Assembly: GCF_041321105.1 (NCBI RefSeq)
Contig: NZ_JBGGWD010000005.1
Coordinates: forward strand, 8,544 to 72,543
Origin: Fibrella musci
GTDB lineage: Bacteria > Bacteroidota > Bacteroidia > Cytophagales > Spirosomataceae
DNA length: 64,000 nucleotides
Reading direction: 5' to 3'
The notes under the pieces: generated by a model
Told to the model about the DNA's origin: nothing
Database searches by the model: none
What the model saw: only the letters and a program-made list of their open reading frames with translations
Translations under genes and position numbers: made by a program
Part shown: piece after piece, positions 7,305 through 37,349 of the stretch
Numbering within the stretch: the stretch's first letter is position 1
Layout of the letters: every line of letters starts with the position of its first letter

Positions 7305-10300
7305 TTAACTCCGACGGGACAGGTTCTGATAGTAACGAGTGATGCCATTGGGCCCAGCCTCTGACTCGGCAAAGCCGTTGCGGTCGATGTTAATGTTGAC
7401 CTGCTTCAACTGACGCAGTTGCTGACTCATCTGGTCCAACCGTTCTAAAAGCTGCTGATTCAGTTCCTGCTGCATGCTGACCGTTTCGGGGGCAACACCG
7501 GACGACAGTGCACTCGGCACCTGCATGGGGGGCAGGTAGATGTCCGTCCAGGGCCTGAGGATCGGCATGGTCAGTTGAGGCATCGACGGTGCCGGCAGCA
7601 GCAGGCGTTGTACCAGCTCGCGGTTAGTGACGTCGCCGTAGAGCCGACGGATGGCCGCGGACTCCTCGATGCTGAACACCCGTTCGCCTTTGGTGAGCCA
7701 CACTGGCACGGTATCGATCCCATCCGGATAGCGCGGGTCATCGACGTAATCCGTCCCCTTGGCGTATTTCTGACCCGTTTCCAGATCATAAGCGTCGGCG
7801 TAGTTAAAAAAGCCATTGACTGTTCTGCCCCCCGTATCAGTCGCGTAGCCGTCGATGGCTTCGGGCCGGTTGGCGTTGTAGAGCAGGTAGACCTTCCGTA
7901 CGCTCCCGTCAGGACGTTTGACGTAAATCTCACCCCGATAGCTCCCGTCACCCGTCCGCAGGCTATCGAGCACCGTGTTCATCTCCACCCAGTTCCCCCC
8001 ACTATCAAAGCCTGAACCCCGCACGGCGCCGTTGGCCGTGTAGGTACTGTTGCGATCAAACGACTTGCCACCTAACTCCCCGATGTAGGCGTTCAGTTCG
8101 TTAATCAGACCGCCGTTCCCGCCCCGCGCTTTCAATTTGGCGACCTCGATTTGCAGCTCAGTAATGGCCATATTTTTACGGGCATTGAACAGATTACGCT
8201 CCGCCTCGTAGGTTGCGTTGGCGTACTCGGTGTTGGCTAATCGACGTTGGTAGGCGGTGTTCACCTCATTATCCTTCAACTGGTTCTGGTACTTCAGAAT
8301 CGTTGCGGTCAGTTCGGCCTGAAGCGCTTCAATCTTGGTCTTGGTCTCCGTTTCCAGCGTCTTGATCCGGCTTTTCAGCTCCGTCTCTTTGGTTTCGTAG
8401 TCCGTGCGGTAGGTGTCGAGGGTTGTTTTAAGTTGGGTCTTCAGCGCCTCAGTTTCCTCCTTCTGGCGTTTTTCCAGTTCCAGTACCTTCTGAGTCTCCT
8501 CTTCCTTAAGTTTTTCGGTGAGGTCTTTCTCCTCCTCTTTAAGCTGCTTACTGACCAGTGTATTCGCCTTCGACTTGTCAAGCTTTGCATCCTCCACGTC
8601 TTTGTGGACCTGCTGAATCCGCTTCTCGTACTCATTAACGACGCGCGCCTTTTCGGCCTCATCGGTGAGGGTGGCGAGTATCCGATCACGCTGCGCAATC
8701 AGTTTATCAGTCTCTGTGGTGCGGTAGCGTTCGAGCGCCTCGTCACGCAGCCGGTCGATAATACCCGTGGCCTCCAACTCATCGGCCTTTGACTGTTCGA
8801 CCAACGATTTTCGATACTCATACGCATCACGCACCGCCTGTTTCTCGGCCTCATACCGGTCATTGATCTGTTGTAGGGCCCGGTCGTACTCCTCCTGGGC
8901 TAGATCACGCTTCTGATCGTAGGCATCCTTCAAGACCGCTAATTGGGCCTCGATGGCTTCCTTCTGTTTGTCCCGCTCCCCTTCGAGTAGCTCTTTCTGC
9001 TGCTCAAAGGCCTCTTTGGCTAAATCAATGGCTTTCTCGGTTCGGTCTTTCTCGGCTTCGTAGGCTTCTTCGATCTGCTTCAACCGCAATTCATGCACTT
9101 CCTTAAGCTCCGCCTTTTCCAACTCCAACTGTTCGATGCGCTCCCGCAGGCCCTTGGTTTGGTTGAAGCGACGCACCTCATCCAGCGTTTGCATGACCTT
9201 AGCCTCATCATCCATGTCTGAAGCCCTGATCTCGGCGATCTTCTGGATGAAGGCTAAATAATCATCCGTACGCCGTTGGTAGGCCGCTACTTCCTTCTCC
9301 TGCCGATAGAAGTTGCGCACCAGCTCAATCTGCTCATCATAGGTCCGTTCGGTCAGGGCAAGCTGCTCATCCAGATAATCCCGGTTTTGCTGACGGGAAG
9401 CCTTGTAGAACTCATCCAGAATGTCGCGGGTACGCCCGGCGGCTTCGGCGGTGGCCTGCCACTTGGCTCGTTCGGCCGCATTGAACATCTCGACCAGTTG
9501 GGTTACCAGTTGATAACCCATCGAAATCAGGCCCAACGTGGCCTGGGTCGAGGCGGTGGCGACTTGACTCACCGTTGCCTGATTGTCAGCCACGTTCTTC
9601 TTGGCCGCGGCCACGACCCCTTCCTGCGCCTTGATCTGCTGGGCATCGCCTGTTTTGTAGACCTCGAACAGCTTGGTCATCGCCCCCTCGTAAACCGATG
9701 TAGCGCCCTGTAAGTTGGCTTTGGCGACCTCTAGGGACTTACCCGACAGGGCATCCCAATCCGCGAACGTCTTCTTAGCTAGCCCGGCAATCGACCCCAT
9801 AAGCCCTGACTGCTGGGCCACCAGATCCACCACCAGGCCGAACACCTGTTTACGGCCTTCGATCTCATCGGCCATGTTCTTTTTCTTGATCTGGGCCGTT
9901 TCACGCTCGGCCTGCTCGATCTCCTGCTGCAACTCCCGGATGTCCTTTTTCCGCTCGGCGTTGGCCTCCTTTTCGGCTTTGAGTCGGGCCTGTTCCTGCT
10001 GCTTGCGGTCTTTGGTGGTCCACACCTGCAGGGCCGCAATGGCTTCCGCCGCTTCTTTTTCGATGCCCTGTTCCTGTTCCACCACATCCATCAGCACGTC
10101 GAGCTGATCCGCCCGTAGTTGGGCCCGCTTCTGTTCGTACTTCTCATGGATGGCAATCAACTGGGCCTTCACCGCCTCCTCAAATTGCTTTTCAACACCG
10201 AACGCGGCCTTCTTGGATACAATGCGTTTATTGGCCGCATCCATCTCAGCCCGCTCCTGCGCGGCCATCGCGGCCAGTTGCTGCTCATACGACCGGGCAA

Positions 10301-12866
10301 AATGACCTTTCATGAACGCTTCCCGGTCATGGGCGGCAAACACCTCAATCTCTTTGACTTTATCCGCTTCTGCTGTGGCCGTCGCGATGCGGGTCGTACT
10401 ACCCGTATCCTGCAACCGACTGAGGTTTTCTTCGTGGCGTTTTTTCTCGGCCAGCAGTTCAGCGCTCGAGCCTTTAGCGGCTTCCATGGCGTTCTGGTGG
10501 CGCGTCATCTCCGCATCCAGCATCGACTTGGTTTCCCCCTGACGCATCAGGTCGCGCCGTTGGGTGGATTCAAGGTTTTGCTTTTCCACCTCGCTGATGT
10601 TTTTCACCACGGTGCGCAGCGCCACAGTGGCCCCGCTGCCCATACCATGCCACAGGTCGTCCCACTGAGCGCGCATCCCGCCATTGAATTGCTTGGTGTA
10701 CTGGCTCGACTCATCCAGCGCTTTCAGTAGTTTGGCCGGATCCCCGTTGATCTGAATCAGCAACTCTTTGGGCAGTCGCTGCGCCGCCAGTTGCATGATT
10801 TCCTGTTCGGTTTTGTGCAACTCCCGTAGCCGGTCCCCATTGACTTCGACCCGGTAGGTTTCCCGCGCCAGCGCGATGCGATCCTGATACGATCGGTTCA
10901 CCTGCTTGAGCATCCTGTCAAGATCACCGTTGGACGTCTTCTCCGAGTTGATGCCGGCGAAGTATTCAGGGTATTTATTCACCAGATACTGAATCGCCAT
11001 GGCCCGCTCGACGGTGCCTTGCTTGGCTTGTTTGGCCAGCTCGACACTCTGGGTAATCAACCCGAGTTCCGTGCGGAGTTTGGTCTCCTGTTCGCCCACC
11101 GCATCGGTTACCTCGGTGGTGACCGCATCCCAGGCGGACATCGCTACCGTAATCGCCGTAACGGCCGTCAGTAAGGCCCCGATTGGATTGGCGACCACAA
11201 CGGCCCACAAAGAACGCCCCGCCACCGCCGAACGCACCTGAGCGGCGGTAAAGCCTTCGGTCGTACCGGCCATCGAAATCAGCGTCAGGTTGTAGGTGCC
11301 ACCAATGGCCACCGATGCCGCCCGGGTTACGTTGGCCGCCACCTCGGCAATCCTGGCCCGGTTAACGATAACCTCATACCCTGTCCAGGCGACAACGGCG
11401 GTACGTACCCACTTGGCCGTTCGGTCAATGGCCGAGTCGGATCCGGCCAGCACGTCGATCAAGTCACTCGTCCCGCCAATGACCTTTTGTAAACCATGCT
11501 GAACATAATCCCCCAGCCTCGCTTTGGCGAAAAAGAACTTGTCAGCCAGGTTAGACACCTGCCCGGCCATCGTTTCGGCCTGCATCTCCATCATGCGGTA
11601 GTAGCGGCCCCCTTCCGATGTGGCGTCTTGCAGGGCCTTCTTGACGTGGGCAAAACTGATCTCATGGGCTTCAGCCATCTTCACGACCTGATCGCGGGTT
11701 TTACCCATCGAAACGGCGAGCAAATCGTAAAGGGGTACGTTATTTTCGACCATTTGGTTAGTCTCAGCCTTGAAAAGGCGACCCTTGCTCATGATGTCGG
11801 TGTAGGCTTTGGCGACCAATGGCAGCTTTTCAGTACCCGCTACAGCGGCGATATCGCCCAGCATCTTGACCGTCGGAATCAACTCGGCCGTCGCTACCCC
11901 CATGGCTTTGAGGCGTCCGGTCACCGTCATTAGATCCTCCACCTGAAACGGGGTCGAAACGGCCAGCTTGGTCAACTCGATCATCAGTTGATCCGCCTGT
12001 TGTTTACTGCCCAACATCTGGGTCAGCCCCCCGGCGAAAATATCGACCTTCCCTTTGGCCTCGATTACCCCTTTCCCAAAGTCAAGGATCTCCTGCACCC
12101 CGAAAGCGGCCATAATCAGCGTACGGAGTTCACCATACACCTCCCGGTAGGCGCTGGGCTGACTGCGGATCAATTGGTTTTGCTGACCGATCTCCTGTCG
12201 TAACAGCGCGGTTTGGCGTAGCTGCTCCTGTCGAACGATGGCCGTCTGCTGATCCGCTTCCGCCTTGCGACCGATGGTCTGCTGTTGCAGTTCGGCGAGC
12301 AGCGCGGCCGTCTGCTGGTTGAGGTTATGCTTCTGGTCGGCCAGCTCCTGCGCCCGTAGCGCCTCGGCCTGCCGGGCCTGCTCCTTCAGGGCGGCATCAT
12401 ACTCAGCAGCCTGCCGGTTTAGCGCAGCCTTCAACTCGGTCAGTTCGGCGGCGTGATGAGCCTTCAAATCGGCTTCCTGTTTACGAAGCTCGGCCTCGCG
12501 TTCGGCCGTTAGCTCCTTGGCGAGTTCAGCCGCTAGCACCAGCCGTTCTTTTTCCGCGGTTTTGTAAGCAGTTGTCAAGCGATCTTCTGATTCTTTGAGT
12601 TGAATCAGTTGTCGATCCAGGGCGGCCTGCTTCTCGATGGTTTCCTGCCTGGCAACTTCTTTGGTGACGGCCAGTTGTTCGGCCGCCGCCGCCTTAGCCA
12701 GCGTGATCCCCTGCTGATAGGTTTGCTGGAGGGCACTGGCAGCTTTCTGGGCCACGGGTCCCTGCTCAGCTACCAATTGTTTAATGGCCTGAAGCTGCTC
12801 AATGGCTGAGGGTAATTCGGAGGCAACTGCGAATCGAAAGCGAATCGTCTGGTCGCGGTTTGACAT
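7305..12866 (-). CDS. Tape-measure-like giant coiled-coil protein (1853 aa)
   Basis: Residues ~230-560 resemble the phage tail tape-measure core, with long charged coiled-coil stretches. The ~300-aa C-terminal region is Gly/Asp/Tyr-rich and unassigned. Confidence 0.6.
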   Translation of the reverse strand: MSNRDQTIRFRFAVASELPSAIEQLQAIKQLVAEQGPVAQKAASALQQTYQQGITLAKAAAAEQLAVTKEVARQETIEKQAALDRQLIQLKESEDRLTTAYKTAEKERLVLAAELAKELTAEREAELRKQEADLKAHHAAELTELKAALNRQAAEYDAALKEQARQAEALRAQELADQKHNLNQQTAALLAELQQQTIGRKAEADQQTAIVRQEQLRQTALLRQEIGQQNQLIRSQPSAYREVYGELRTLIMAAFGVQEILDFGKGVIEAKGKVDIFAGGLTQMLGSKQQADQLMIELTKLAVSTPFQVEDLMTVTGRLKAMGVATAELIPTVKMLGDIAAVAGTEKLPLVAKAYTDIMSKGRLFKAETNQMVENNVPLYDLLAVSMGKTRDQVVKMAEAHEISFAHVKKALQDATSEGGRYYRMMEMQAETMAGQVSNLADKFFFAKARLGDYVQHGLQKVIGGTSDLIDVLAGSDSAIDRTAKWVRTAVVAWTGYEVIVNRARIAEVAANVTRAASVAIGGTYNLTLISMAGTTEGFTAAQVRSAVAGRSLWAVVVANPIGALLTAVTAITVAMSAWDAVTTEVTDAVGEQETKLRTELGLITQSVELAKQAKQGTVERAMAIQYLVNKYPEYFAGINSEKTSNGDLDRMLKQVNRSYQDRIALARETYRVEVNGDRLRELHKTEQEIMQLAAQRLPKELLIQINGDPAKLLKALDESSQYTKQFNGGMRAQWDDLWHGMGSGATVALRTVVKNISEVEKQNLESTQRRDLMRQGETKSMLDAEMTRHQNAMEAAKGSSAELLAEKKRHEENLSRLQDTGSTTRIATATAEADKVKEIEVFAAHDREAFMKGHFARSYEQQLAAMAAQERAEMDAANKRIVSKKAAFGVEKQFEEAVKAQLIAIHEKYEQKRAQLRADQLDVLMDVVEQEQGIEKEAAEAIAALQVWTTKDRKQQEQARLKAEKEANAERKKDIRELQQEIEQAERETAQIKKKNMADEIEGRKQVFGLVVDLVAQQSGLMGSIAGLAKKTFADWDALSGKSLEVAKANLQGATSVYEGAMTKLFEVYKTGDAQQIKAQEGVVAAAKKNVADNQATVSQVATASTQATLGLISMGYQLVTQLVEMFNAAERAKWQATAEAAGRTRDILDEFYKASRQQNRDYLDEQLALTERTYDEQIELVRNFYRQEKEVAAYQRRTDDYLAFIQKIAEIRASDMDDEAKVMQTLDEVRRFNQTKGLRERIEQLELEKAELKEVHELRLKQIEEAYEAEKDRTEKAIDLAKEAFEQQKELLEGERDKQKEAIEAQLAVLKDAYDQKRDLAQEEYDRALQQINDRYEAEKQAVRDAYEYRKSLVEQSKADELEATGIIDRLRDEALERYRTTETDKLIAQRDRILATLTDEAEKARVVNEYEKRIQQVHKDVEDAKLDKSKANTLVSKQLKEEEKDLTEKLKEEETQKVLELEKRQKEETEALKTQLKTTLDTYRTDYETKETELKSRIKTLETETKTKIEALQAELTATILKYQNQLKDNEVNTAYQRRLANTEYANATYEAERNLFNARKNMAITELQIEVAKLKARGGNGGLINELNAYIGELGGKSFDRNSTYTANGAVRGSGFDSGGNWVEMNTVLDSLRTGDGSYRGEIYVKRPDGSVRKVYLLYNANRPEAIDGYATDTGGRTVNGFFNYADAYDLETGQKYAKGTDYVDDPRYPDGIDTVPVWLTKGERVFSIEESAAIRRLYGDVTNRELVQRLLLPAPSMPQLTMPILRPWTDIYLPPMQVPSALSSGVAPETVSMQQELNQQLLERLDQMSQQLRQLKQVNINIDRNGFAESEAGPNGITRYYQNLSRRS

Positions 12867-15569: not shown

Positions 15570-16937
15570 TTAGAGCAACGAGTCAAACGCAGCATCGACG
15601 GCACCTGACCCAAATGAATCTAGATAAATATTTGTCGTTGTCTCGTCTTTATGGCCCAGCGCCTGACCAATTACGGCGCTGGCATGACCAGCTCGCTTTA
15701 GATTAGTGGCAAATGAGTGCCTGGCTACATAAGTAGTCAATGGTGTTGCTAGGCCAATCGAGTCACTGATTGTCTTTAGATCCGTGTTTACTTGTCCCAG
15801 CACCTTGTGCAGCCGGTTCTTTACCTTATCGGCTGTTGAGTGGCTGGCTTTGTTCAGAATCGGAAAAATAAACGCATCCGGTCCGGTGTACGTCTCCCTT
15901 CGATATCGTTCAATTATGGACACAGCAGGAGCTATCAGCTTCAGCGAGAAATTACCGCCTGTCTTTTGCCGAACGTAGCTGATCCGGTAATTATCCTCTC
16001 CGGCTCGTTGTACGTCTTGCCAACGCAGTTGCGCCAGATCGACAAAGTTGATGCCGGCCACGAAGTAAGAGAACAAAAATACGTCCTTGGCCAGTTGCAT
16101 TCGCTCAGATTCCCGGCTTAGGCTGGCGTACTTGCCCGTTGGTCTAGCCGGCACTTCGTATTCTTCGACTTTGCGGATATCCTCCCGACTGACGGCCCGT
16201 TTCCTAGTCGAGGTATCGAATTTGCCGACACTAAATTTGCTTCGCTCCGCTACATTGCGGGCAAAGGGGTATTTGTCAGGCTTCATGGCCCCGTCAGCAA
16301 TGGCCCGGTTGAGCACCGTGCGCAAAACTCGAAACCGCTGGGACATGGTGTTCTCTGTATTACTTCGCTGCCGCAGGTAGGCCTCGAACTGGTTGCAAAA
16401 GGAAAGGTTCACCTGTTCAAAAGAGACGTCTGTGACTTGCTTTTGCTCGGTCAGAAACGAAGCCAGTTGTTTTTGTACATCGAGGTAGGTATCTGCCGTT
16501 CCATTGCGATGGGTAGCTCTGAGTGATTCGACCGTCTCTGTAAAGAAAGCTAGCAGTGTAGTGCGACGCGCCTGCTGCCTGCCTTCAATGGCTTTACTAA
16601 TAACCGCTGTTACATCGTGTCGCTCATCCGACTCAGTCAGCATAGCCGCTGCCTGGCTATATTTGTTTTCCCATTCGGCCAGTTTCTCGATCAGTTGAGT
16701 CCTGAATGGGGATGGATAGTTTTTTCGTATAGCCTCCCGATAGTTTGAGTGCTGGGCGTTCCAGTATTTGGGGTGCATAGTCAACCCAGTAGCAACATAT
16801 TTGGTCTTCCGGTCCTTCGTCACACGAAGCCAGAAAGGACACAGTCCTTCCTTATCCGCTTTATCCAGTCGGTACACGATCCGCACGGTGGCGCGGCCCT
16901 CTTTATGGCTGGTGGTACGTGGCATTTGATTTACCAA
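15570..16937 (-). CDS. int: Tyrosine site-specific integrase
   Basis: C-terminal catalytic region ARHSFATNLKRAGHASAVIGQALGHKDETTTNIYLD carries the R..H..R..Y signature. Confidence 0.85.
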   Translation of the reverse strand: MVNQMPRTTSHKEGRATVRIVYRLDKADKEGLCPFWLRVTKDRKTKYVATGLTMHPKYWNAQHSNYREAIRKNYPSPFRTQLIEKLAEWENKYSQAAAMLTESDERHDVTAVISKAIEGRQQARRTTLLAFFTETVESLRATHRNGTADTYLDVQKQLASFLTEQKQVTDVSFEQVNLSFCNQFEAYLRQRSNTENTMSQRFRVLRTVLNRAIADGAMKPDKYPFARNVAERSKFSVGKFDTSTRKRAVSREDIRKVEEYEVPARPTGKYASLSRESERMQLAKDVFLFSYFVAGINFVDLAQLRWQDVQRAGEDNYRISYVRQKTGGNFSLKLIAPAVSIIERYRRETYTGPDAFIFPILNKASHSTADKVKNRLHKVLGQVNTDLKTISDSIGLATPLTTYVARHSFATNLKRAGHASAVIGQALGHKDETTTNIYLDSFGSGAVDAAFDSLL

Positions 16938-17083
16938 AGCGGCTCAGGTAAAACGCTAGGTAAAACAAATATAGTAAAACAACGAGATACAGCCAGCTAC
17001 AACCAGAGCAACCGAAGTGTTTAAACTACTGCAAATCAACAATCTATATAAAATTCTGGATATAATAGAAAGTATATAGGCCC

Positions 17084-17124
17084 ATCCTTCTAAGAAGGCG
17101 GTCATAAGTTCGAATCCTATCGGG
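17084..17124 (+). repeat. Partial tRNA-Arg 3' segment (anticodon stem-loop, T-arm, acceptor 3' strand): att-like copy
   Basis: CCTTCTAAGAAGGCGGTCATAAGTTCGAATCCTATCGGGATC. Inverted copy of 17183-17228 with 2 mismatches. Confidence 0.55.
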
Positions 17125-17132
17125 ATCGCATA

Positions 17133-17178
17133 AAAAACAAAAAAGCCAGTCACCTGATTGGTTAACTGGCTGATTTTT
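17133..17178. terminator. Hairpin GCCAGT..ACTGGC flanked by A- and T-runs, at the centre of the tRNA-fragment palindrome
   Basis: AAAAAAGCCAGT-loop-ACTGGCTGATTTTT. Confidence 0.45.
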
Positions 17179-17182
17179 AGTG

Positions 17183-17262
17183 TGATCCCGATAGGATTCG
17201 AACCTATGACCGCCTTCTTAGAAGGAAGGTGCTCCCCTATTAAGCATTCATCCAAGCTGGGC
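17183..17262 (-). tRNA. tRNA-Arg(TCT)-like gene, possibly truncated or a pseudogene
   Basis: D-arm GCTT/GAGC. Anticodon stem CCTTC/GAAGG with loop CTTCTAA giving anticodon TCT. T-arm ATAGG-TTCGAAT-CCTAT. Acceptor 3' strand CGGGATC-A. I could not find a complementary 5' acceptor strand. Confidence 0.4.
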
Positions 17263-21955: not shown

Positions 21956-22023
21956 GGATATAGCCGAGGAGGCAGCTAGCGGGGTGTGAAGCGCCCTGGC
22001 TAGCTGCCTCCTCGGCTATATCC
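21956..22023. repeat. Perfect 25-bp inverted repeat with an 18-nt loop
   Basis: GGATATAGCCGAGGAGGCAGCTAGC...GCTAGCTGCCTCCTCGGCTATATCC, 57 nt after the stop of the preceding gene and without a T-run. Confidence 0.6.
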
Positions 22024-27896: not shown

Positions 27897-29561
27897 TCAT
27901 CGAATTGTATTTTTTCCACCAAATTTTGTACCAAAGAAATCGCCCGCGTTCCAGACCGGGCGTTCAGTAGCCTGGGCCGTCAGGTAGCCAATCAGGAATT
28001 GTAACTGCACGTGCCGGGCGGCGGCGCTCCAGTCAAACGGCTGGTTCATGTCGTCCTGCGGGGTGTGGTAGGTGGTGGCCCGCCAGTCGAGATTGAGTTT
28101 GGTACCGTCGCGTGAATCACCGGTAGTGGAGCCACTCTTGACATAAATGGCCGGAATGCCCTGGCGTACGAAGCTGAAGTGGTCAGACCGCATAAAGACC
28201 GACTGCTCGGGAATAGGGTCTTTGGCGATCTGCACGCCCACAAAGCTGGCGGCGGCTTCCACGGCCCCTTTCATGCTCGAATGCTCGGAGCCATAGGGTA
28301 CGATGTCGAGCAGCGGATGGAAGAAGAACGGCATGTCGAGGCACAGGTTCGCCACGATTTGCTCTTTCGGTACGGTGGGGTTGCTGGCGAAATAATCGGA
28401 CCCCAGCAGGCCCATTTCCTCGCCCGTTAAGGCCACGAACAGAATCGATCGGCGGGGTTTCTGGGGTAGTGTCGAGAAGAGACGAGCGGCTTCGAGGTTG
28501 ATGGCCACGCCCGAGGCGTTATCGTGCGCTCCGTTGTTAATGGAGTCGCCCTTAATCGGACGAGTAACGCCGAGGTGGTCGAGGTGAGAGACGTAGACGA
28601 CGTATTCACCACTCAGTTTCGGGTCGATGCCGGGCAGCAATCCCACGATGTTTTCGCCCACCAGGCCGTCGTTCAGGTCGGTCTGGGTACGTGCCTGCAC
28701 CGATACGTTGAGCGGAAACGCCTGCGGCTTGCTTTGGTTGGCGGCGGTGCGGGCGTCGGCAAACGAGCGGGGTGCGTTGGCAAACAGCGCCCGGCAGGTC
28801 GAGTCGCCCAGAGAAGCCACCACCCGAAGCTGCGGGTAGGTACGTTGCGCGCGGCCCTGCGCGTCGGTCCAGCGGTAAATGGCCTGCCGGTTGCGGGGCG
28901 CGTTGGACTCGATTCGGGCGCGCATATCGGTAGGCAGGCTGAAGGTGATGATGCCCACGGCCCCGCGCGCCGCGGCGACTTCCTGCTTGGCCGACCCAGA
29001 GTAGGCCCGCTGATTAGACGGGAACGAAGCCGGCGCGCCGTTGAAGCAGGCCACGATCTTTCCTTTTACGTCGATGTTGGCGTAGTCGTCGTAGCCCAGT
29101 TCGGGCGCCGACACGCCAAAGCCAACAAATACGACCTCGGCCGACACTTCGCTCGTGGCTTCGCCAAAGTTGGGGCTCAACACAAAGTTACGGCCGTAGG
29201 TCAGTGGGTACGTTAGTCCGTTTTGGGTCAGCACCATCGAGCTTCCCTCCTCCCGCACCTGCGCTTTCCGCAACGGCACGGCCTGCCGGTACGTACCCCG
29301 CTGACCGGCGGGCTTGAAGCCCAGCGTCTGAAACTGCTTTTCGACGTATTGTGCCGCCAATTCAAAGCCGGGCGTACCGGGTTTGCGGCCTGCCAGTTTG
29401 TCGTCGGCGAGGTAGCGCATGTGGGCTTCCACGGCTTCGGGTTTGACCCGTTTGGCCGCCTGTTGGGCCTCAGCGGGGATGGTACTAGTGGTGACCTGCG
29501 CAGAAACGGACTGAATTAGTCCGGCGCAGAGGAAGAAAAAAACGCGCGAGTTGAGTATCAT
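27897..29561 (-). CDS. M28 family peptidase with a PA domain, secreted
   Basis: Signal peptide, HLDHLG, and a GEEMGLLGSDYFA zinc-aminopeptidase motif. Confidence 0.8.
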   Translation of the reverse strand: MILNSRVFFFLCAGLIQSVSAQVTTSTIPAEAQQAAKRVKPEAVEAHMRYLADDKLAGRKPGTPGFELAAQYVEKQFQTLGFKPAGQRGTYRQAVPLRKAQVREEGSSMVLTQNGLTYPLTYGRNFVLSPNFGEATSEVSAEVVFVGFGVSAPELGYDDYANIDVKGKIVACFNGAPASFPSNQRAYSGSAKQEVAAARGAVGIITFSLPTDMRARIESNAPRNRQAIYRWTDAQGRAQRTYPQLRVVASLGDSTCRALFANAPRSFADARTAANQSKPQAFPLNVSVQARTQTDLNDGLVGENIVGLLPGIDPKLSGEYVVYVSHLDHLGVTRPIKGDSINNGAHDNASGVAINLEAARLFSTLPQKPRRSILFVALTGEEMGLLGSDYFASNPTVPKEQIVANLCLDMPFFFHPLLDIVPYGSEHSSMKGAVEAAASFVGVQIAKDPIPEQSVFMRSDHFSFVRQGIPAIYVKSGSTTGDSRDGTKLNLDWRATTYHTPQDDMNQPFDWSAAARHVQLQFLIGYLTAQATERPVWNAGDFFGTKFGGKNTIR

Positions 29562-29656
29562 TCGGGGCGTATTAATTGACTGGATGTGCCGGATTGAGGG
29601 GCCAGCTTAACTATCGACAAGATACGGCATCCGGCTGAGGAAAACGCCCTATTCGG

Positions 29657-30706
29657 TCAGTTGTCGGTAGCTGGCGAGACCACTGGCTCAGGATTAGGCC
29701 CATAGGCGGCTAACCCGGCTTGCAGCCGTTTCTGGATGCTATGGCGCAGCCGGGCGGGCTCGAGCACCTGCATGCCATCGCCAAAGCCCAGGATTTCTTT
29801 TTCCAGTTCGAAGTTGTGCTGCACTAGCAGTTCGATCAGGATACCGGCTTCGGTTCGCTCCAGCACCCGTTGCGAATGGTGCAGGGGTTTGGTTTCGACG
29901 TAGGGCGCGTGGCGGGCGATCACGAAGAGCTTCACGCGAACGGGCCGCAGATTTTCGCTCACCGTGACGCCGATGACGTGCCGGTAATAATGGTCGGGGT
30001 CGATGTGCTCGTTGGGTACGTAGTCGGCGGAAGTATCTACGCTGAGCGACAGCATCCGGTCGAGGGCCAGGTTGTTGAGCATCCCTTTGCCGTTGCGCAG
30101 ACCAACGGCAAACCAGCGGTTTTTAAACTCCTTGAGCCACCAGACGTGAAAGGTAAACGTCTGCGGAGCGCGGGCCGAAAACGACTGATACTCGATTCGG
30201 AGCGCCCGTTTCTGAATTACCGCCTGGTAGAGTTCGTCGAGCAGGTGAAGGCCCCGCAGGTTATCGTTCTTCTCGAAGTCGATCACCCGCGCCGACTTCT
30301 GAGCAGTGGCATAGACGTGATCTTCCAGCTTCTGCACCACCTCGTTGAGTGCCGAAAAATGCGAGAAGCCCCGAAATTGTTTCAGCACCTCTACGGCTTC
30401 ATTCATCCGCGACAGATCGCCATCCGACAGTGGAATGTTAGTGATGCTGTAGGTGGGATCGTCGTAGGTGTAGTACTTTTTGTCGATCACCACGATGGGC
30501 GCAAAATAACCCAGTTTGTCGCTGCGCATCAGTTGCAGATCGGCCTGCACAGTGCGGCGGCTGATGCCTTTGTCGATGCCTTCATACTCGTACAGGGCTT
30601 CGGAGACACGCTCGATCAGGTCGTCGAGCGTCCATTTGCGTTGCCGGTTGCGCAGGCAGACGTCCAGCGTTTTATAGCGAATAAGGGCGTTTCGGTTGGT
30701 AGGCAT
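29657..30706 (-). CDS. HTH plus WYL domain transcriptional regulator
   Basis: N-terminal wHTH-like region (RYKTLDVCLRNRQRKWTLDDL) with architecture similar to WYL-family regulators. Confidence 0.55.
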   Translation of the reverse strand: MPTNRNALIRYKTLDVCLRNRQRKWTLDDLIERVSEALYEYEGIDKGISRRTVQADLQLMRSDKLGYFAPIVVIDKKYYTYDDPTYSITNIPLSDGDLSRMNEAVEVLKQFRGFSHFSALNEVVQKLEDHVYATAQKSARVIDFEKNDNLRGLHLLDELYQAVIQKRALRIEYQSFSARAPQTFTFHVWWLKEFKNRWFAVGLRNGKGMLNNLALDRMLSLSVDTSADYVPNEHIDPDHYYRHVIGVTVSENLRPVRVKLFVIARHAPYVETKPLHHSQRVLERTEAGILIELLVQHNFELEKEILGFGDGMQVLEPARLRHSIQKRLQAGLAAYGPNPEPVVSPATDN

Positions 30707-30844
30707 AATGGCACGCGGATGACATGGATTTTAAGGATGATCGCGGATTTTATGCTTATGATAGCCAATCCTTTTCATCCAGACGCGCACTCTTAAGTCG
30801 TAAGCTGCGGTCCCATCCATCATTCAATTTTTGTAAAAATTTTT

Positions 30845-30871
30845 CATCTGCGCAAAAAGACTGCGCAGATG
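30845..30871. promoter_or_regulatory. 10-bp inverted repeat CATCTGCGCA-N7-TGCGCAGATG upstream of the WYL regulator
   Basis: Perfect palindrome ~140 bp upstream of the start codon. Candidate operator. Confidence 0.4.
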
Positions 30872-31034
30872 GCCTAAACCTTTGTCGTAGTGAAAGCGCC
30901 GATGGCCAGCCCGGACGAGGGTTTCTGCAGGGCCCCGTAGTATCGCAGCCGCTGGCTGATCCCGATATGCTGCTGGTAGCAGGTGGCTGCACTATTAGAT
31001 CTGTGGGTTGGGGGTTCAAGTCCTCCCTCTGTTT

Positions 31035-31089
31035 CGGCAGGGTAGCTCAATGGTAGAGCAACAGCAAAATGCAGGTTCGAATCCTGCTA
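31035..31089 (+). other. tRNA-like remnant: acceptor/D-arm and T-arm present, anticodon arm absent. A further T-arm-like fragment lies at 31010-31034.
   Basis: GGCAGGGTAGCTCAATGGTAGAGCA then directly GCAGGTTCGAATCCTGC. The 3' strand TATCAAC does not pair with the 5' end. Confidence 0.3.
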
Positions 31090-31442
31090 TCAACCTGTAA
31101 AGTTGATCCATGGATGGGAAGTCGACCGCTTCTAAAAATGGTCACTCGATAATTGGATCGGTCAGCCACGATCCGGTGGCGGTTGGGTTCGCCCGACCAC
31201 CACAGCTTAGTCAGCGCCAGCGGGCCGGTAACGCGGCTGGGGCGGGCTTGGCGGCGGTAACCGGGTTGTTGGCTGGGTACGTTGGTTCGTCAGACAGCGT
31301 TGCGTCTGATGGGGCCGGCCTCCTCGCCAACACAGGTTCCCAATGCCTCGCACCAAAGCAGTCGCCGCGTCGGCTTCCGCGTGGGCTAGGCGGGTCGCTG
31401 GCTGATCGGTTTTTTAATGAATTACCTTAAACACCATTTGCA

Positions 31443-32558
31443 ATGAAAACGGTACGCATCCTGGCTCATCAGATTGGGCTTGTATTTAAACATGGCGGCT
31501 ACAAAAAAAAGCTGTCGGCGGGCAACCACTGGGTTTGGTCCAACGAAACCGTCTATGTCTACAATCAGGGAGAGCCGTTCCAGAACCCACCCTGCGAGCT
31601 GGCCCTGTTGCTGGCTCACCCGGAGGTCGCCGCGGCCCTTGATGTAATAGACGTCAACGACAACGAAATCGCGCTGCAATACGAGCGGATCGCCGGGTCG
31701 TCGACGGGTCTGTTTCAGACCATTCTGCGCAAAGGCCGCTGGGCTTACTGGAAGGGCGTGAAACAATACACCTACATCCGGGCCGATCTGAGCCAGTTGA
31801 CCATTCCGGCCGAGGTTGACCTGGCCTCGCTGATGCCGCAGCCGCTGTCGGCCTACGTGCGGACGTATTCCGTGGAAGCCCACGAGCAGGGCGTGCTGTT
31901 TGTCGACTGGCAATTTGATCGGGTGTTGACGCCAGGTACGTATCACTGGTGGAAAAACACCACGCCCATCCACGTCCTGAAAGTCGACATGCGGCAGCAG
32001 CAACTGGAGGTGTCGGGTCAGGAGATGCTGACCAAAGACAAAGCCTCGCTGCGGTTGAGCTTCTTCGTGCCCTATCAGGTACGTGACGTGCTGAAGGCGT
32101 TGGTCGACAACAAAGACTACGACAAGCAGTTATATGTTGCCGTGCAGCTGGCCCTGCGTGAATACATCGGTGGCCTGACGCTCGACGAGTTGCTGGACCG
32201 CAAAAACGACCTGGCGCCGTTTGTGCTGGCCGCCACCGCCGCTAAAGCTGCCGCGCTGGGTATCGAGTTGCGGGGCGGTGGGGTGCGCGACATCATTTTG
32301 CCGGGCGACATGCGCGACATCATGAATCAGGTGCTGATGGCCGAGAAAAAAGCGCAGGCCAACAGCATCATGCGCCGCGAAGAAACCGCTTCGACCCGTA
32401 GCTTGCTGAACACCGCCAAGCTGATGGAAGACAACGAGATGCTGTGGAAGCTGAAAGAGATGGAGTACGTAGAAAAAATCGCCGACAAGATCAATTCTAT
32501 TTCCGTGTCCAACGGCGGCCCGATCGTCGATCAGTTGAAGCAATTGTTTGTGAAGTAA
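31443..32558 (+). CDS. SPFH/band-7 (stomatin/prohibitin-like) domain protein
   Basis: Central/C-terminal ...GGVRDIILPGDMRDIMNQVLMAEKKAQANSIMRREE... characteristic of SPFH proteins. Confidence 0.65.
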   Translation: MKTVRILAHQIGLVFKHGGYKKKLSAGNHWVWSNETVYVYNQGEPFQNPPCELALLLAHPEVAAALDVIDVNDNEIALQYERIAGSSTGLFQTILRKGRWAYWKGVKQYTYIRADLSQLTIPAEVDLASLMPQPLSAYVRTYSVEAHEQGVLFVDWQFDRVLTPGTYHWWKNTTPIHVLKVDMRQQQLEVSGQEMLTKDKASLRLSFFVPYQVRDVLKALVDNKDYDKQLYVAVQLALREYIGGLTLDELLDRKNDLAPFVLAATAAKAAALGIELRGGGVRDIILPGDMRDIMNQVLMAEKKAQANSIMRREETASTRSLLNTAKLMEDNEMLWKLKEMEYVEKIADKINSISVSNGGPIVDQLKQLFVK

Positions 32559-32670
32559 GTTACCCCCCGCCCTAAAGGGAGCCCGCTGGCGCACGAATAC
32601 GCCTACGGCGGAGCTACTAAAGCGCCAGCAGGCACCCTTTAGGTGGTCCGGCATTCCGGCGGGGGGTAAC
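32559..32670 (+). promoter_or_regulatory. Large multi-stem structured element between the SPFH stop and the rtcB start
   Basis: Outer 13-bp arms GTTACCCCCCGCC/GGCGGGGGGTAAC. Nested stems CCTAAAGGG/CCCTTTAGG and GCTGGCGC/GCGCCAGC, plus small hairpins CGCC-TAC-GGCG and CCGG-CATT-CCGG. Followed by an A-rich tract rather than a U-tract. Confidence 0.5.
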
Positions 32671-32694
32671 CGCACCAAAAAACAAAACCATCCC

Positions 32695-34230
32695 ATGGAA
32701 ACCTCCTTTTCTCTTGACGAATTACTGGCGCTGGGGCCGATTCCCGAGGCGCTGCAACCGGCGTTTCTGCGCGTAGCCAACGGGCTGACGCAACGGGCCG
32801 AATACCCTAAAGCGTACGTACTGGGTTTGCTGGCGCAGTTGCTCCAGAATCCGAAGAAGTTTGCCTATTCGAAAAACAAAGTCACGAACCTGGCCCGGTC
32901 GGTGTATGAACTGAGTCAGCAGGGTGTTAGCATTCCGCTGAGCGAAACCGGGGCAACGTACCTGCCCGCCGAGCCCGCGCCATACGTACTAAACACCGAT
33001 CAGAAACAGACCGAAACCGCCTTCGATCTGCGTGAGGGACCACTCCCCTACGCGGTCTTCGGGCGCGATTTCATCGAAGAAGGCGCGCTGAAACAGATGC
33101 ACACGGCTGCGAGCCTGCCGGTGTCGGTGGCGGGCGCGCTCATGCCCGACGCCCATCAGGGTTACGGACTGCCCATCGGCGGCGTATTGGCGACCGAGGC
33201 GAATACCGTGATTCCGTTTGCGGTGGGAGTCGACATTGCCTGCCGGATGTGCCTGTCGATCTTCGACCTGACGCCCGATTTTCTGAAGCGAGAACCGCAT
33301 TTGCTGAAAAAATCGCTGGTGGAGCAAACCAAGTTTGGCATCGGGGGCGAAACCCGCGAAAAGCTCGATGAAAGCGTGATGGATTTGCCTGAATGGCGCG
33401 CCACGAAGGTGATCCGGGACCTGAAAGACAAAGCCTACCGGCAGTTGGGTAGCTCGGGAACGGGCAACCATTTTGTGGAGTGGGGCATTGTGGAGGTGTA
33501 TGCCGACGAAGGCGCGGAGACCAGACTGAACCTGACACCGGGCGAGTACCTGGCCCTGCTGTCGCACTCGGGGTCGCGGGGTTTTGGCGGCAATGTGGCT
33601 AATTACTACTCGAAACTGGCCATGCAGAAGACGAAGCTGCCCAAAGAAGCGGCGCACCTGGCCTGGCTCGACCTGAACACCGAGGAAGGGCAGGAATACT
33701 GGATTGCGATGAACCTGGCGGGTGAATACGCTTCGGCCAATCACCACGAAATCCACCGGAAACTGGCCAAAGCCCTGCGTCAGAAACCACTGGTGATGGT
33801 CGAGAACCACCACAATTTTGCCTGGAAAGAGCAACTGGCCGATGGCCGTGAGGTGATCGTCCATCGCAAGGGTGCAACGCCCGCTGGTCCCGATGTGTTG
33901 GGGATCATTCCCGGCTCAATGACCCAACCGGGCTTTGTCGTGCGCGGACGCGGCAACGCCGAATCGATCAATTCGGCGTCGCACGGGGCCGGACGGCTGA
34001 TGTCACGTACCCAGGCGTTCAACAGCATCACCCGGTCGCAGTGGAACAAAGCGCTCGCCGACGCCGACGTGCAGTTGGTGGGTGGCGACCTCGACGAAGC
34101 GCCGATGGTGTACAAAGACATCGATACTGTCATTAACGCTCAACGTGATCTGGTATCGGTACTGGCGAAGTTTACGCCCAAAATCGTTCGGATGGCCGAC
34201 GCCAACCGGAAAGAAGGGCGCGAAGATTGA
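32695..34230 (+). CDS. rtcB: RNA-splicing ligase RtcB, with a ~100-aa N-terminal extension
   Basis: NHHNFAWKE...HRKGATPA and PGSMTQPGFVVRG motifs typical of RtcB. Confidence 0.85.
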   Translation: METSFSLDELLALGPIPEALQPAFLRVANGLTQRAEYPKAYVLGLLAQLLQNPKKFAYSKNKVTNLARSVYELSQQGVSIPLSETGATYLPAEPAPYVLNTDQKQTETAFDLREGPLPYAVFGRDFIEEGALKQMHTAASLPVSVAGALMPDAHQGYGLPIGGVLATEANTVIPFAVGVDIACRMCLSIFDLTPDFLKREPHLLKKSLVEQTKFGIGGETREKLDESVMDLPEWRATKVIRDLKDKAYRQLGSSGTGNHFVEWGIVEVYADEGAETRLNLTPGEYLALLSHSGSRGFGGNVANYYSKLAMQKTKLPKEAAHLAWLDLNTEEGQEYWIAMNLAGEYASANHHEIHRKLAKALRQKPLVMVENHHNFAWKEQLADGREVIVHRKGATPAGPDVLGIIPGSMTQPGFVVRGRGNAESINSASHGAGRLMSRTQAFNSITRSQWNKALADADVQLVGGDLDEAPMVYKDIDTVINAQRDLVSVLAKFTPKIVRMADANRKEGRED

Positions 34231-34306
34231 GGTCAGGAACCCGCTACTTGTCAATCAGCCCCCATTGATCGTCAGTGGGGGCTGATTTTTTAACGGCCAG
34301 ATCAGC

Positions 34307-35455
34307 CTACGAAATGGTTTTTAGTAAAACACCCAATAAAGCAGCACCGGCAATTAAATAAGGCTCGGGTAACTTGTTGAACCGCCACAAAAGCACGCCC
34401 GCCAGCAGGGCCAGGCATAGTGCAGGCCAGTCGGTCAGCTGCCGTCGACCCAGTACAACAACTGCCCCGGCAATGGCACCGACCGCACCAATGGTGATGC
34501 CATCGACGAAGGCCCGGATGCCGGGTCGTTGACCGTAGCGTTTGAAGTAAGGGGCGGGCAGAATCGTGAGCAGGTAGCAGGGCAAAAACGTGGCTAGGGC
34601 CGCTACGCAGGCACCAGCCCAGCCCGCCACCAGATACCCAATGAAAGCTACCGTGATGACCACCGGCCCCGGCGTGATCATGGCAACGGCCACCGCATCC
34701 AGAAACTGCTGCTCGTTGAGCCAGCCGTATTCCTTCACGACGCCCCCGTACAGAAACGGAACAATGGCCAGACCGCTACCAAAAACAAACGCGCCCGCTT
34801 TCCCGAAAAACAGGGCCAGTTTCCAGTAAATCGACCCCGGTGTCGCCAGCCCCCACAACTCTATAGTGGGCGACAACGTACCCAGACGGCTCAACTGTCG
34901 AAAATCGGGGGGCGATTTAACCAGCCAGTAGAGCACGCCCGCGCCCACGATAAGTCCGATCAGTTCCGTTTCCAGAACTGCCGTCGTTACCGCCGAAACC
35001 CCGAAAATCACCCAGCCTAGCCAATCGGCCGGGCGAACGGTTTTGAGGGTAAGCTTATACGTACCCATCGCAATAATGGCGATAACAGCCGCCCCGATGC
35101 CGTAAAAAATGGCCTGAATCCAGGCTAATCCGCCAAAGCGCACGTAGGCCCAGCCAATCGCCAGCACCATCAGAAAAGAGGGAATCACGAAGGCCACGCC
35201 AACGGCCGTTGCGCCAAGTATGCCGTAGTGTACGTAGCCCAGATAAATGGCCAGTTGAGCCGCCAGCGGGCCGGGTGCCAACTGCGCCAGCGCTACACCT
35301 TCACGGTAGTCGGCTTCGCTGATCCACTGGCGGGCTACCACCAGATCGCGGTGCATGTAGCCGATCAGGGCGGGTGGTCCACCAAAACCAACGGTTCCTA
35401 GTTTCAGGAAGTAAACCACCAGGTCACGGAGCGAATAGGTAGCGGTTGTATGCAT
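34307..35455 (-). CDS. chrA: Chromate transporter ChrA
   Basis: GGPPALIGYMHRDLV..., LAQLAPGPLA, and a duplicated CHR domain architecture. Confidence 0.8.
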   Translation of the reverse strand: MHTTATYSLRDLVVYFLKLGTVGFGGPPALIGYMHRDLVVARQWISEADYREGVALAQLAPGPLAAQLAIYLGYVHYGILGATAVGVAFVIPSFLMVLAIGWAYVRFGGLAWIQAIFYGIGAAVIAIIAMGTYKLTLKTVRPADWLGWVIFGVSAVTTAVLETELIGLIVGAGVLYWLVKSPPDFRQLSRLGTLSPTIELWGLATPGSIYWKLALFFGKAGAFVFGSGLAIVPFLYGGVVKEYGWLNEQQFLDAVAVAMITPGPVVITVAFIGYLVAGWAGACVAALATFLPCYLLTILPAPYFKRYGQRPGIRAFVDGITIGAVGAIAGAVVVLGRRQLTDWPALCLALLAGVLLWRFNKLPEPYLIAGAALLGVLLKTIS

Positions 35456-35458
35456 GGC

Positions 35459-36049
35459 TCAGAAAGAAACGCCGAACTGAAAACCGAGCGTGGCGCTGGT
35501 GGGGCGGTCGTTGCCAAAGCGAACGGGTAGTGGTATGGCCAGAAAATAATTCATCGGGCCGGGCCGACGGAAGGTTTTGTTCAATACCGGCGTAACCCCG
35601 TAGCGCCCACCGGTTTCAAACGCCAACCGATTAGCGAGCGTAAACCCTTTACCCAGGCCTACCAGCACACCCGGATGAAACAGCACATTGTTGACCCGGC
35701 TAATCCCCGCTTCGGATCGGATAAACGGCACGATTTCCAGCGAATAACCGATGTTGGCCGTTTTCCAGATGTTGACTCCGACGGGAAAACCAACCTGGTA
35801 AAAGCTTTTAAAATTGACCACCGGCGCATCCTGACTGAACGTCACGATCGGGTGAAGAATACCCTGATACAGCACCGTGCGGGGATAGTCATGGACGGGA
35901 GGTACCTGCTGGGCGTGCATCGCCAACGGGATCAGGGTTAACAACAGGCTGATAGTTAGCAGCCCGACAGGCCGAAAAAACAAAGCCTGACAATAAGTTG
36001 AGTAGCCGTAAAGCATGCGCGTAAACATAGCGTTGACTGGGCTCGGCAT
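35459..36049 (-). CDS. Hypothetical membrane/outer-membrane protein (196 aa), probably co-transcribed with chrA
   Basis: Hydrophobic signal-like segment and a beta-rich alternating pattern. 3 bp from chrA. Confidence 0.4.
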   Translation of the reverse strand: MPSPVNAMFTRMLYGYSTYCQALFFRPVGLLTISLLLTLIPLAMHAQQVPPVHDYPRTVLYQGILHPIVTFSQDAPVVNFKSFYQVGFPVGVNIWKTANIGYSLEIVPFIRSEAGISRVNNVLFHPGVLVGLGKGFTLANRLAFETGGRYGVTPVLNKTFRRPGPMNYFLAIPLPVRFGNDRPTSATLGFQFGVSF

Positions 36050-36115
36050 ACCAGAACCGAACCCGGTTACAAGGCTATGAACGCTTCGTTGGCTGGCATA
36101 GCACAGAATTGCCCT

Positions 36116-36239
36116 TTGGCCTATTCTTTACCTTTTTGGACCTGTTTTCGATAAGCCGACGGACTTATGCCGACCATTTTTTTGAACACGCGCGTGAAAT
36201 GACTCTGATCGGAAAAGCCCGTCAGGTACGCAATGTCGG
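36116..36239 (-). pseudogene. Orphan 3' fragment of an AraC-family gene (last 41 codons plus stop): direct repeat copy A
   Basis: About 95% identical to 37394-37517. Encodes ...DIAYLTGFSDQSHFTRVFKKMVGISPSAYRKQVQKGKE*. Confidence 0.7.
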
Positions 36240-36242
36240 AAG

Positions 36243-37349
36243 TTAGGTCGCTGTTTTGTCTTTGAGTACGTACACCGTTGCCCTTCCTTCACCCATCCGT
36301 TCCAGCATGCCCTGCTGCACCATGTATTGCAGGTCCTTTTTGAGCGTGTTCACCGACAAATCAGGCAGCAGCGCAGACAGATCGCTAACCTTGACAGGTC
36401 GATTCGCCTGGAACGACGCAACGACTCGCTGCTGTCGGGCATTGAGATAACCACCTTTATCTTTATACAGCGCATACTTATTGTTTAACCGATCAGTTAA
36501 CGTTTTCAAACAGTCGAGAAAGAAGATGATCCAATCGCCAATGAGCTCACGATCTGTTCCCCGATGTTGCTGACCCGCCATCAATGCCCGGTAATAATCG
36601 GCTTTCCGCTGCTCGATAATATTTTCAAACGACACATACTGGGCGAAGTCGTAGCCCATTTTCAACAACAGCAAGGTTGTCAATAATCGCGACAACCGGC
36701 CGTTACCGTCCTGAAACGGGTGAATAGAGAGAAACTCATAGACAAAAAGCCCGATAACCAGAAGCGGGTGAATTTGCTTGTTGCTTAAGGCCGCAGCCAC
36801 CCACCGGAGCATGTCAAACATCTCCGCTTCGATCAGGTGCGGCGCCGTCGTGTTAAATATGACCCGTTGTGTACCGTCCGGGTAGTTAGCCACAACCTGG
36901 TTCGAAAGGGCTTTGTAACTGCCCCGGTGCCGTTGGTCTTTATCGCTATAGCGAAGCAGGACACCGTGCAGCTGCTTTACGTAAGACTCGGTTAATTCGA
37001 TTGCTTTGGCATGGTCCAGAATCAGATCCAAGGCTTCATAATAGCCAAATACCTCTTGTTCATCGCGGGTTTTAAACTCGGTGACCTTTACACTCCGTAC
37101 CAGTTTTTCAACCTCCTCATTGGTTAAGATAGCCCCTTCAATGCGGGTGGATGACCCAATACTTTCGATAGTAGCGACTCGCCTTAACTCGCGCAGATAA
37201 CGGTTATTTTTTTGCTCGATAGCTTCCCATTTCCCCCGAAACGCGTCAATCAGGCCAATACGACGTATTATTTCCTGTGTTGCCGCAAAATCGAACTGGA
37301 GCTTGTGCTCAAATATCATATCCGTATTGTATCCGTATTGTATCCGCAA
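36243..37349 (-). CDS. fic: Fic/DOC family protein (AMPylator-type) with a C-terminal winged-helix
   Basis: HPFQDGNGRLSRLL Fic motif. The ORF-track start is a TTG; an ATG (MIFEHKL...) lies 10 codons later at 37317-37319. Confidence 0.8.
   Translation of the reverse strand: MRIQYGYNTDMIFEHKLQFDFAATQEIIRRIGLIDAFRGKWEAIEQKNNRYLRELRRVATIESIGSSTRIEGAILTNEEVEKLVRSVKVTEFKTRDEQEVFGYYEALDLILDHAKAIELTESYVKQLHGVLLRYSDKDQRHRGSYKALSNQVVANYPDGTQRVIFNTTAPHLIEAEMFDMLRWVAAALSNKQIHPLLVIGLFVYEFLSIHPFQDGNGRLSRLLTTLLLLKMGYDFAQYVSFENIIEQRKADYYRALMAGQQHRGTDRELIGDWIIFFLDCLKTLTDRLNNKYALYKDKGGYLNARQQRVVASFQANRPVKVSDLSALLPDLSVNTLKKDLQYMVQQGMLERMGEGRATVYVLKDKTAT
37321..37346. repeat. Tandem 11-bp repeat TCCGTATTGTA x2.4 at the Fic 5' end
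   Basis: tccgtattgtatccgtattgtatccg, immediately upstream of (or within the first codons of) fic. Confidence 0.6.

Follow-up and report, generated by a model that had tools for sequence, protein, structure and literature searches.

A 112-bp inverted-repeat element between an SPFH gene and rtcB of Fibrella musci, probably a copy of a MITE-like family in Spirosomaceae

The spacer between the SPFH/Band_7 gene and rtcB of Fibrella musci carries a 112-bp inverted-repeat element, which is probably one copy of a small, non-coding, MITE-like TIR family in Spirosomaceae that has come to lie behind the SPFH stop codon. This assignment follows from its anatomy: the element is small and non-coding, its inverted arms are conserved between copies, its core is variable, it is sited after a stop codon and its presence at a given site varies. 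In total, we found three copies, one in each of three contigs and each in a different gene context. The family is of a well-known kind, that of the small palindromic repeats, and was previously unnamed; neither Rfam, nor phage and plasmid collections, nor a limited literature search yielded a description of it. Our analysis thus adds an inverted-repeat family to those of Spirosomaceae, and neither annotation nor further work should treat the structure in front of rtcB as an rtcB riboregulator or as a Y RNA. In the following, the window denotes the whole stretch of 64,000 nucleotides that was analyzed.

Position and fold of the element

The element directly abuts the TAA stop codon of SPFH (32556-32558) and ends 24 nt before the rtcB ATG (Table 1). 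It reads, in order, GTTACCCCCCGCC CTAAAGGG AGCCCGCTGGCGC, the core, and then GCGCCAGCAGGC ACCCTTTAG GTGGTCCGGCATTCC GGCGGGGGGTAAC. The repeat finder identified an outer stem of 13 perfect pairs, GTTACCCCCCGCC/GGCGGGGGGTAAC (32559-32571 with 32658-32670, repeat I25), and a pair of 22-nt inner arms that are 91% complementary (32571-32592 and 32622-32643, repeat I7) and that include CCTAAAGGG/CCCTTTAGG (9 bp) and GCTGGCGC/GCGCCAGC (8 bp). Two small hairpins, CGCC-TAC-GGCG (32600-32610) and CCGG-CATT-CCGG (32648-32659), are added to these. The stems of 13, 9 and 8 bp and the two small hairpins listed in the initial annotation are therefore correct by both the repeat finder and the RNA fold. The same annotation had the structure fill the whole intergenic space; the structure is real, but it occupies 112 of the 136 intergenic bases, and the last 24 nt are an unpaired, A-rich stretch.

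Table 1. Features of the SPFH-rtcB region (window coordinates)
Feature	Position	Strand	Description and basis
YrlA-like (Y RNA-like, tRNA-like) RNA	30973-31096	+	Upstream of SPFH; Rfam
SPFH/Band_7 ("slipin") gene	31443..32558	+	Pfam PF01145, E 5.8e-23; homologues
Whole inverted-repeat element	32559..32670	.	112 bp; short left arm, 29-nt core and long right arm; + and - strand folds, inverted repeats I7/I25, arm homology to L087/L088
Left arm, short variant	32559..32592	+	GTTACCCCCCGCCCTAAAGGGAGCCCGCTGGCGC; 32/33 identical to L087 87-119
Core	32593..32621	+	29 nt; carries the first small hairpin; not conserved between copies
Right arm, long variant	32622..32670	-	Inverted left arm plus 15-nt insert; 43/45 identical to L088 3891-3935
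A-rich rtcB leader	32671..32694	+	CCGCACCAAAAAACAAAACCATCCC; outside the element; unpaired in the fold
rtcB, 511 aa	32695..34230	+	Pfam PF01139, E 4.4e-86; full-length tblastn matches in L001-L007 and L016

As RNA, the plus strand of the element folds into a single nested structure with a minimum free energy of -68.2 kcal/mol (z -5.95), a stability reached by none of 200 dinucleotide shuffles, and the minus strand reaches -76.2 kcal/mol (z -6.8). The start region of rtcB is untouched by the hairpin in the predicted fold. When we compared the 16 spacers of 40-250 nt that separate same-strand ORFs in the 64-kb window, the one between SPFH and rtcB was the only strongly structured one (z -6.45), with the other 15 lying between +0.37 and -2.04. 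A 216-aa antisense shadow ORF is the sole ORF that crosses the element. Rfam returned no match on it, either in the search of the whole window at gathering scores or in that of positions 30500-33200 at E values up to 10.

An alignment of five arms revealed that the window copy combines one short arm with one long arm, the long variant being the short one plus a 15-nt insert. This insert, GTGGTCCGGCATTCC, lies at about 32643-32657, makes the second small hairpin and is present in L088 too. The arms measure about 34-49 bp and follow the consensus (G)TAGCCCCCCGCC[GGAATGCCGGACCAC]CTAAAGGGAGCCCGCTGGCGC, with a variable core between them; the left arm of the window copy is recovered by the arm-profile nhmmer search with an E value of 6.5e-9. 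Folded alone, this left arm does not fold (z +0.3), and four arms folded singly as DNA gave only -4 to -7.4 kcal/mol (z +1.2 to -0.3). There are five arm differences, two in the window copy and three in L087, and none of them is compensated. The terminal tetranucleotide is GTAG in L088, TTAG at both ends of L087 and GTTA at both ends of the window copy. The two complete copies are bordered by TA, as is L088 at its one visible end; the dinucleotide is self-complementary and could belong to the inverted repeat, and the orthologous loci compared include no near-identical empty site.

Copies at unrelated loci and relation to known repeats

When metagenomes were scanned with a consensus of both inner arms, CCTAAAGGGWGCCYGCTGGCGC, two contigs, L087 and L088, were retrieved. 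The first carries a complete element of ~160 bp, whose two inverted arms are 32/33 identical to the left arm of the window and enclose a 90-nt core unrelated to that of the window (fold -105.7 kcal/mol, z -7.9). A sigma-factor-like ORF has this element at its 3' end and uses the terminal TAG of the element as its stop codon. The second contig ends inside its copy, which is preceded by an FAD oxidoreductase gene. The visible arm begins 6 nt past the stop codon of that gene and matches the right arm of the window at 43 of 45 positions, 15-nt insert included. By sequence comparison, the two contigs share nothing else with the window. Orthologues of the L088 locus lack the element, with an empty 34-nt spacer in L090 and unrelated spacers in L089 and L091.

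The oxidoreductase of L088 is 77-81% identical to Fibrella/Fibrivirga proteins, which places this contig in the Fibrella/Fibrivirga clade. For L087, MetX is 82% identical to that of T. bombi, 81% to that of Fibrisoma limi and 77% to that of Fibrella aestuarina, and one further protein reaches 84%; on its MetX sequence, this genome is placed near Tellurirhabdus and Fibrisoma. Since the non-coding arms are 95-97% identical across genera in which housekeeping proteins are ~77% identical, the arms must be either constrained in sequence or recently moved.

Searches with the outer-stem pattern, blastn-short and an nhmmer profile of the five arms found no further copy in the 64-kb window and ~0.9 Mb of fetched loci, ~150 kb of which are from Spirosomaceae. 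No match to the element was found in plasmid and phage collections (blastn, word size 11). Of two scans of viral contigs, one gave no match and the other yielded just L092, an unrelated IMG/VR viral contig of 62-69% GC. There, a lone arm-like 21-mer (CCCTAAAGGGGGCCCGCTGGCGC, 8103-8123), which lacks an inverted counterpart, is located shortly downstream of an ORF on the minus strand. CTACGGCGG follows ~10 nt downstream of the match (8098-8150), as it does in the window element. By a rough estimate, about one chance match to a 21-mer is expected in a viral collection of that size; the match could reflect chance or distant homology, and the extra 9-mer is suggestive.

Several properties of the copies agree with those of MITEs, which are non-coding and shorter than about 500 bp. 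The element measures 112 bp in the window and ~160 bp in L087, its TIRs are conserved between copies that have unrelated cores of 29 and 90 nt, and it occupies unrelated sites, being absent from 15 other SPFH-rtcB loci and from L089-L091. It may spread, or may once have spread, through a transposase acting in trans on the arms. A scan of the window ORFs, comprising every one of 250 aa or longer (28) and five below that length, gave neither a transposase domain nor a RAYT gene, and we know of no autonomous element with matching ends.

Correia elements are ~100-160 bp long, carry TIRs, are flanked by TA and are co-transcribed with their neighbors, and their hairpins can be substrates of RNase III. 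Like these elements of Neisseria (for reviews of bacterial MITEs such as these, see PMC10969869, PMC3184786 and PMC2229807), the element described here is non-coding and intergenic, has long TIRs around a variable core, is flanked by TA, varies in presence at orthologous sites, lies in spacers that are probably co-transcribed with the neighboring genes and folds into a long hairpin. Unlike them, it is represented by three copies in three contigs and its TA duplication is a candidate one, and there is no sequence similarity between the two families.

A published account of REPs, which does not extend to MITEs, places them near the 3' end of the upstream ORF and notes that their termini can supply TAG stop codons (PMC3733652). 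Junctions right after stop codons are preferred sites for palindromic repeats, and REP dimers can fold into a single large stem-loop (PMC3733652). Our element shares these traits, in that it follows the end of an upstream ORF by a few bases at most, supplies the stop codon of that ORF with its (G)TAG in L087 and forms one large stem-loop from two inverted units that are 29-90 nt apart. However, a REP unit is itself a palindrome of 20-40 bp (PMC3116915, PMC3733652), whereas the single arms of the element do not fold, and the window copy starts with GTTA rather than GTAG. We rejected an identity with REP/REPIN sequences since the single arms are not palindromes (z about 0), and their non-palindromic nature makes the architecture one of TIRs, as in MITEs. 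The label "REP-like" that had been considered for the structure thus applies in the broad sense, as the arms recur at unrelated gene ends in Spirosomaceae, but not in the sense of REP/REPIN proper.

Two other hairpins of the window (21956-22023 and 63029-63086) lack a U-tract; their stems span 25-26 bp, with perfect pairing in one and 96% complementarity in the other. Neither has another copy in the window or the fetched loci; they may be other palindromic insertions rather than terminators.

SPFH-rtcB junctions in related genomes

Orthologous loci were collected by SPFH alignment (80 genome loci) and by exact-protein look-ups (nine), and in 16 distinct loci, window included, rtcB directly follows SPFH. 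The sequence of the element was absent from all 15 other junctions, even at 95% SPFH identity. As a positive control, the same nhmmer search recovered the YrlA-like RNA in ~50 loci and the element in none of the orthologous ones. In L081, where SPFH is 95% identical, the spacer is a different one of 113 nt with a palindrome of unrelated sequence and a 23-bp stem. The shorter hairpin of L082/L083 (86%) is only marginally similar to the element, and we did not rely on it as a homologue because 9 of 300 shuffles gave an equally high alignment score. Apart from this marginal case, local alignment detected no similarity between the element and the other junctions above that of shuffled sequences. 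L001-L004, L006, L007, L095 and L096 each have their own distinct hairpin, the spacers of L016 and L093 each have their own sequence, unlike the element, and hairpins are lacking in L084 (85%), in L085/L086 (83%) and in L005, where the spacer is just 9 nt long.

Overall, 11 of the 16 junctions carry a stable hairpin (z -2.6 or lower) of unrelated sequence, two more are weakly structured and three have none. The junction hairpins all stop ~14-28 nt short of the rtcB ATG and leave an unpaired leader, and all 13 spacers of at least 48 nt in the related loci finish in an unpaired stretch ahead of the ATG. Together with the lack of any spacer below z -2.04 among the other 15 same-strand spacers of the window, these observations would fit an explanation in which the Spirosomaceae SPFH-rtcB junction needs a strong stem-loop of any sequence, of which the element is the local version, for example to adjust the SPFH:RtcB stoichiometry through mRNA stabilization, processing or attenuation. 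The hairpins of Larkinella (L002 ~5120-5160, L003 ~5125-5165 and L096 ~3640-3670) point in the same direction, as they have a common CCCGAA/TTCGGG stem core and, read by eye, flanking stem positions that vary yet remain paired. Such selection, which is compatible with an origin as a mobile element, seems to us a real but rather unlikely possibility. Three close relatives (L084, L085 and L005) do without a hairpin, and in Chitinophagaceae-type operons SPFH and rtcB are 0-8 nt apart or split by other genes, so that the hairpin is dispensable for the operon. Moreover, palindromic repeats already prefer junctions behind stop codons (PMC3733652).

The presence of unrelated hairpins at 11 of the 16 junctions means that selection for a hairpin, beyond mobility alone, may explain why the element was retained. 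That the spacer is the sole strongly structured one of 16 in the window, and that hairpins are so common at this junction, also suggest that the hairpin may not be entirely neutral here; given the three close relatives without one, it is not essential. The recurrent unrelated hairpins could simply tune relative expression within the operon. We consider it doubtful that the junction is selected for any strong hairpin and that the lineage recruited a mobile palindrome as a working part of the operon. If this were the case, the recruited hairpin could set the SPFH:RtcB ratio, and it would be the binding of a conserved host protein, rather than of a transposase, that accounts for arms nearly identical from genus to genus. 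More speculatively, the hairpin might then be a double-stranded RNA target, the cleavage of which, followed by re-ligation by RtcB, would feed back on rtcB expression.

Some junction palindromes are long and unrelated to each other, namely, those of L081 (5117-5229, 23 perfect pairs) and L001 (5140-5240, stem of ~27 pairs), and the spacer of L095 (Spirosoma linguale, 3608-3761) is a 154-nt multi-stem sequence; these may be members of other repeat families. By eye, the loop of the L003 hairpin resembles the reverse complement of the L002 loop (GATCAAYRC), suggesting a flipped loop.

Transcription, host operon and regulatory alternatives

No sigma-70-type promoter was called within 30600-34600, and thus none in or after the element, and the Bacteroidetes -7 motif (TAnnTTTG) was not found in 29190-37347, including upstream of the YrlA-like RNA and SPFH. 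As neither consensus was found, the operon promoter would be of an unrecognized type. The terminator scan called no terminator-like site in the element; the clear terminators of the window are A-tract/GC-stem/T-tract hairpins, such as that at 34253-34287 after rtcB. Given that there is no promoter in or after the element and no terminator in it, rtcB is most likely co-transcribed with SPFH, with the element as an internal hairpin of the mRNA.

The most that the element probably does in this mRNA is to serve as an intercistronic hairpin of a generic type. The REP sequence between malE and malF of E. coli is such a hairpin, which stabilizes the mRNA. The element resembles it as a stable hairpin between co-transcribed genes, without a U-tract, that might favor the upstream gene, the likeness being one of mechanism only. 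By analogy with REP and Correia elements (reviewed in PMC3184786 and PMC10969869), the operon mRNA would carry the element as a hairpin of about -68 kcal/mol, which would keep 3'-exonucleases away from the SPFH segment upstream of it or, alternatively, provide a site for RNase III-type cleavage or for pausing. As an outcome, SPFH would exceed RtcB, and the A-rich translation-initiation leader of rtcB would be left unpaired. The element would not be a specific sensor or riboregulator of rtcB. An excess of SPFH would suit a cage-forming SPFH protein that is paired with an enzyme. The account as a whole, combining spread by a transposase acting in trans with a generic hairpin that raises SPFH over RtcB by protection, cleavage or pausing, is one that we put forward tentatively.

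Being highly stable, rich in GC and placed immediately behind a stop codon, the hairpin could instead be a terminator or attenuator at which the SPFH transcript ends and which is read through for the expression of rtcB; as there is no promoter motif before rtcB, any termination here would lower rtcB expression. This appears improbable, because the hairpin is followed by the A-rich tail CCGCACCAAAAAAC and not by a U-tract, and because the genuine terminators of the window show an A-tract/stem/T-tract symmetry that is missing here. The view taken at the outset, that the structure is not a standard terminator, is borne out by this tail and by the terminator scan. Termination that is independent of a U-tract, whether Rho-dependent or by pausing, is possible at the element.

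The operon itself has a divergent gene for a WYL/WCX-domain regulator (29657-30706, Pfam), and the nearest homologues of its SPFH protein are from Fibrella, Spirosoma and Larkinella. The regulator makes it probable that the operon is stress-regulated. This, together with a strong multi-stem fold directly upstream of rtcB, would suit a locus-specific cis-regulatory leader, riboswitch- or attenuator-like, that controls rtcB under stress. The initial annotation had proposed a cis-regulatory RNA of this type and had tied it to conservation and covariation of the structure in orthologous leaders and to an Rfam search. However, none of the 15 other SPFH-rtcB junctions, including that with 95% SPFH identity, has this structure or this sequence, and the same arms stand behind unrelated genes in L087 and L088. 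Furthermore, the five arm differences include no compensatory change (two fall in the window copy and three in L087), Rfam has no match on the element and the hairpin stays clear of the rtcB start region. We therefore regard control of rtcB by a dedicated leader as very improbable.

In this operon, it is the YrlA-like RNA at 30973-31096, and not the 112-nt element, that represents the conserved RNA. The YrlA model RF02553 gives this YrlA-like RNA 43.5 bits (E 1e-7), short of its gathering score of 69, and the tRNA model gives it 30.4 bits, which exceeds the gathering score of 29. ARAGORN found no tRNA or tmRNA in the window and thus did not call it a tRNA. With a single-sequence nhmmer search, it was recovered at the equivalent position upstream of SPFH in the ~50 Bacteroidota loci. 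According to a preprint (bioRxiv 10.1101/312249), Burroughs and Aravind predicted a repair system composed of Band-7, RtcB and a tRNA-like RNA, and the window operon matches the system as it is outlined there. The RNA at 30973-31096 is probably the predicted "b7a-tRNA"/YrlA of such Band-7-RtcB systems. This YrlA-like/tRNA-like RNA upstream of the Band-7 gene is a better target than the element for studies of RtcB biology.

In the rsr-yrlB-yrlA-rtcBA operon of Salmonella, YrlB lies ahead of rtcB. The element could accordingly be read as a second Y-RNA-like ncRNA, an analogue of YrlB, as it has a length of about 110 nt, forms a long stem from its 5' and 3' ends and is located just before rtcB, in an operon that holds a YrlA-like RNA. 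Like YrlA/YrlB and the "b7a-tRNA" of RtcB RNA-repair operons (PMC4201824; bioRxiv 10.1101/312249), it is a structured sequence next to rtcB in a Band-7 operon, and Band-7-RtcB systems with tRNA-like RNAs have been predicted (bioRxiv 10.1101/312249). Unlike these RNAs, it has no Rfam Y-RNA match at E values up to 10 and is unconserved in the orthologous operons in which the YrlA-like RNA is conserved. In addition, its arms occur at loci that lack rtcB, and a scan of all 28 window ORFs that reach 250 aa, together with five below this length, gave no TROVE/Ro60 gene. We give this reading hardly any credence.

The sites known as attC start with RYYYAAC and end with GTTRRRY. A recombination site had also been suggested, and for one such as an integron attC the element, imperfectly palindromic and placed without a gap behind a stop codon, would have a fitting length. 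This reading can practically be dismissed, as the ends of the element, GTTACCC...GGGTAAC, are wrong in order and composition, the L087/L088 copies start with TAGCCCC, and there is no integron context or adjoining integrase, the only one of the window (15570-16937) lying 15 kb off in a separate island.

Several features of the operon and its surroundings were noted in addition. The RtcB domain begins at residue 134 and is preceded by an N-terminal extension of ~130 aa (residues 1-133, window 32695-33095), which is kept at full length in L001-L007 and L016 and has a partial or no match in many Chitinophagaceae RtcB proteins. A 106-aa Ala/Gly/Ser-rich ORF (31110-31430, plus strand) between the YrlA-like RNA and SPFH has no Pfam match, is mostly omitted by gene callers, is 40-45% identical where SPFH is 85-86% identical and gives a split match in L081; it is possibly no genuine gene, yet the spacer keeps its length of ~340 nt. 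In L094 (Spirosoma agri), the WYL regulator and SPFH are present, rtcB is missing and a convergent GH42 gene with a terminator-type hairpin follows, so that the SPFH module can exist without RtcB.

Elsewhere in the window, the tyrosine integrase gene (15570-16937, minus strand) adjoins a 56-nt inverted repeat (17082-17229, 91% complementary), which consists of sequence resembling the 3' half of a tRNA (Rfam tRNA match at 17191-17245, 39.3 bits). To its left (1443-12866) are genes for an 1853-aa tape-measure-domain protein, a Toprim/DnaB-like primase-helicase and a Schlafen/AlbA_2 protein, and the region resembles an integrated, phage-like island whose attachment site is duplicated.
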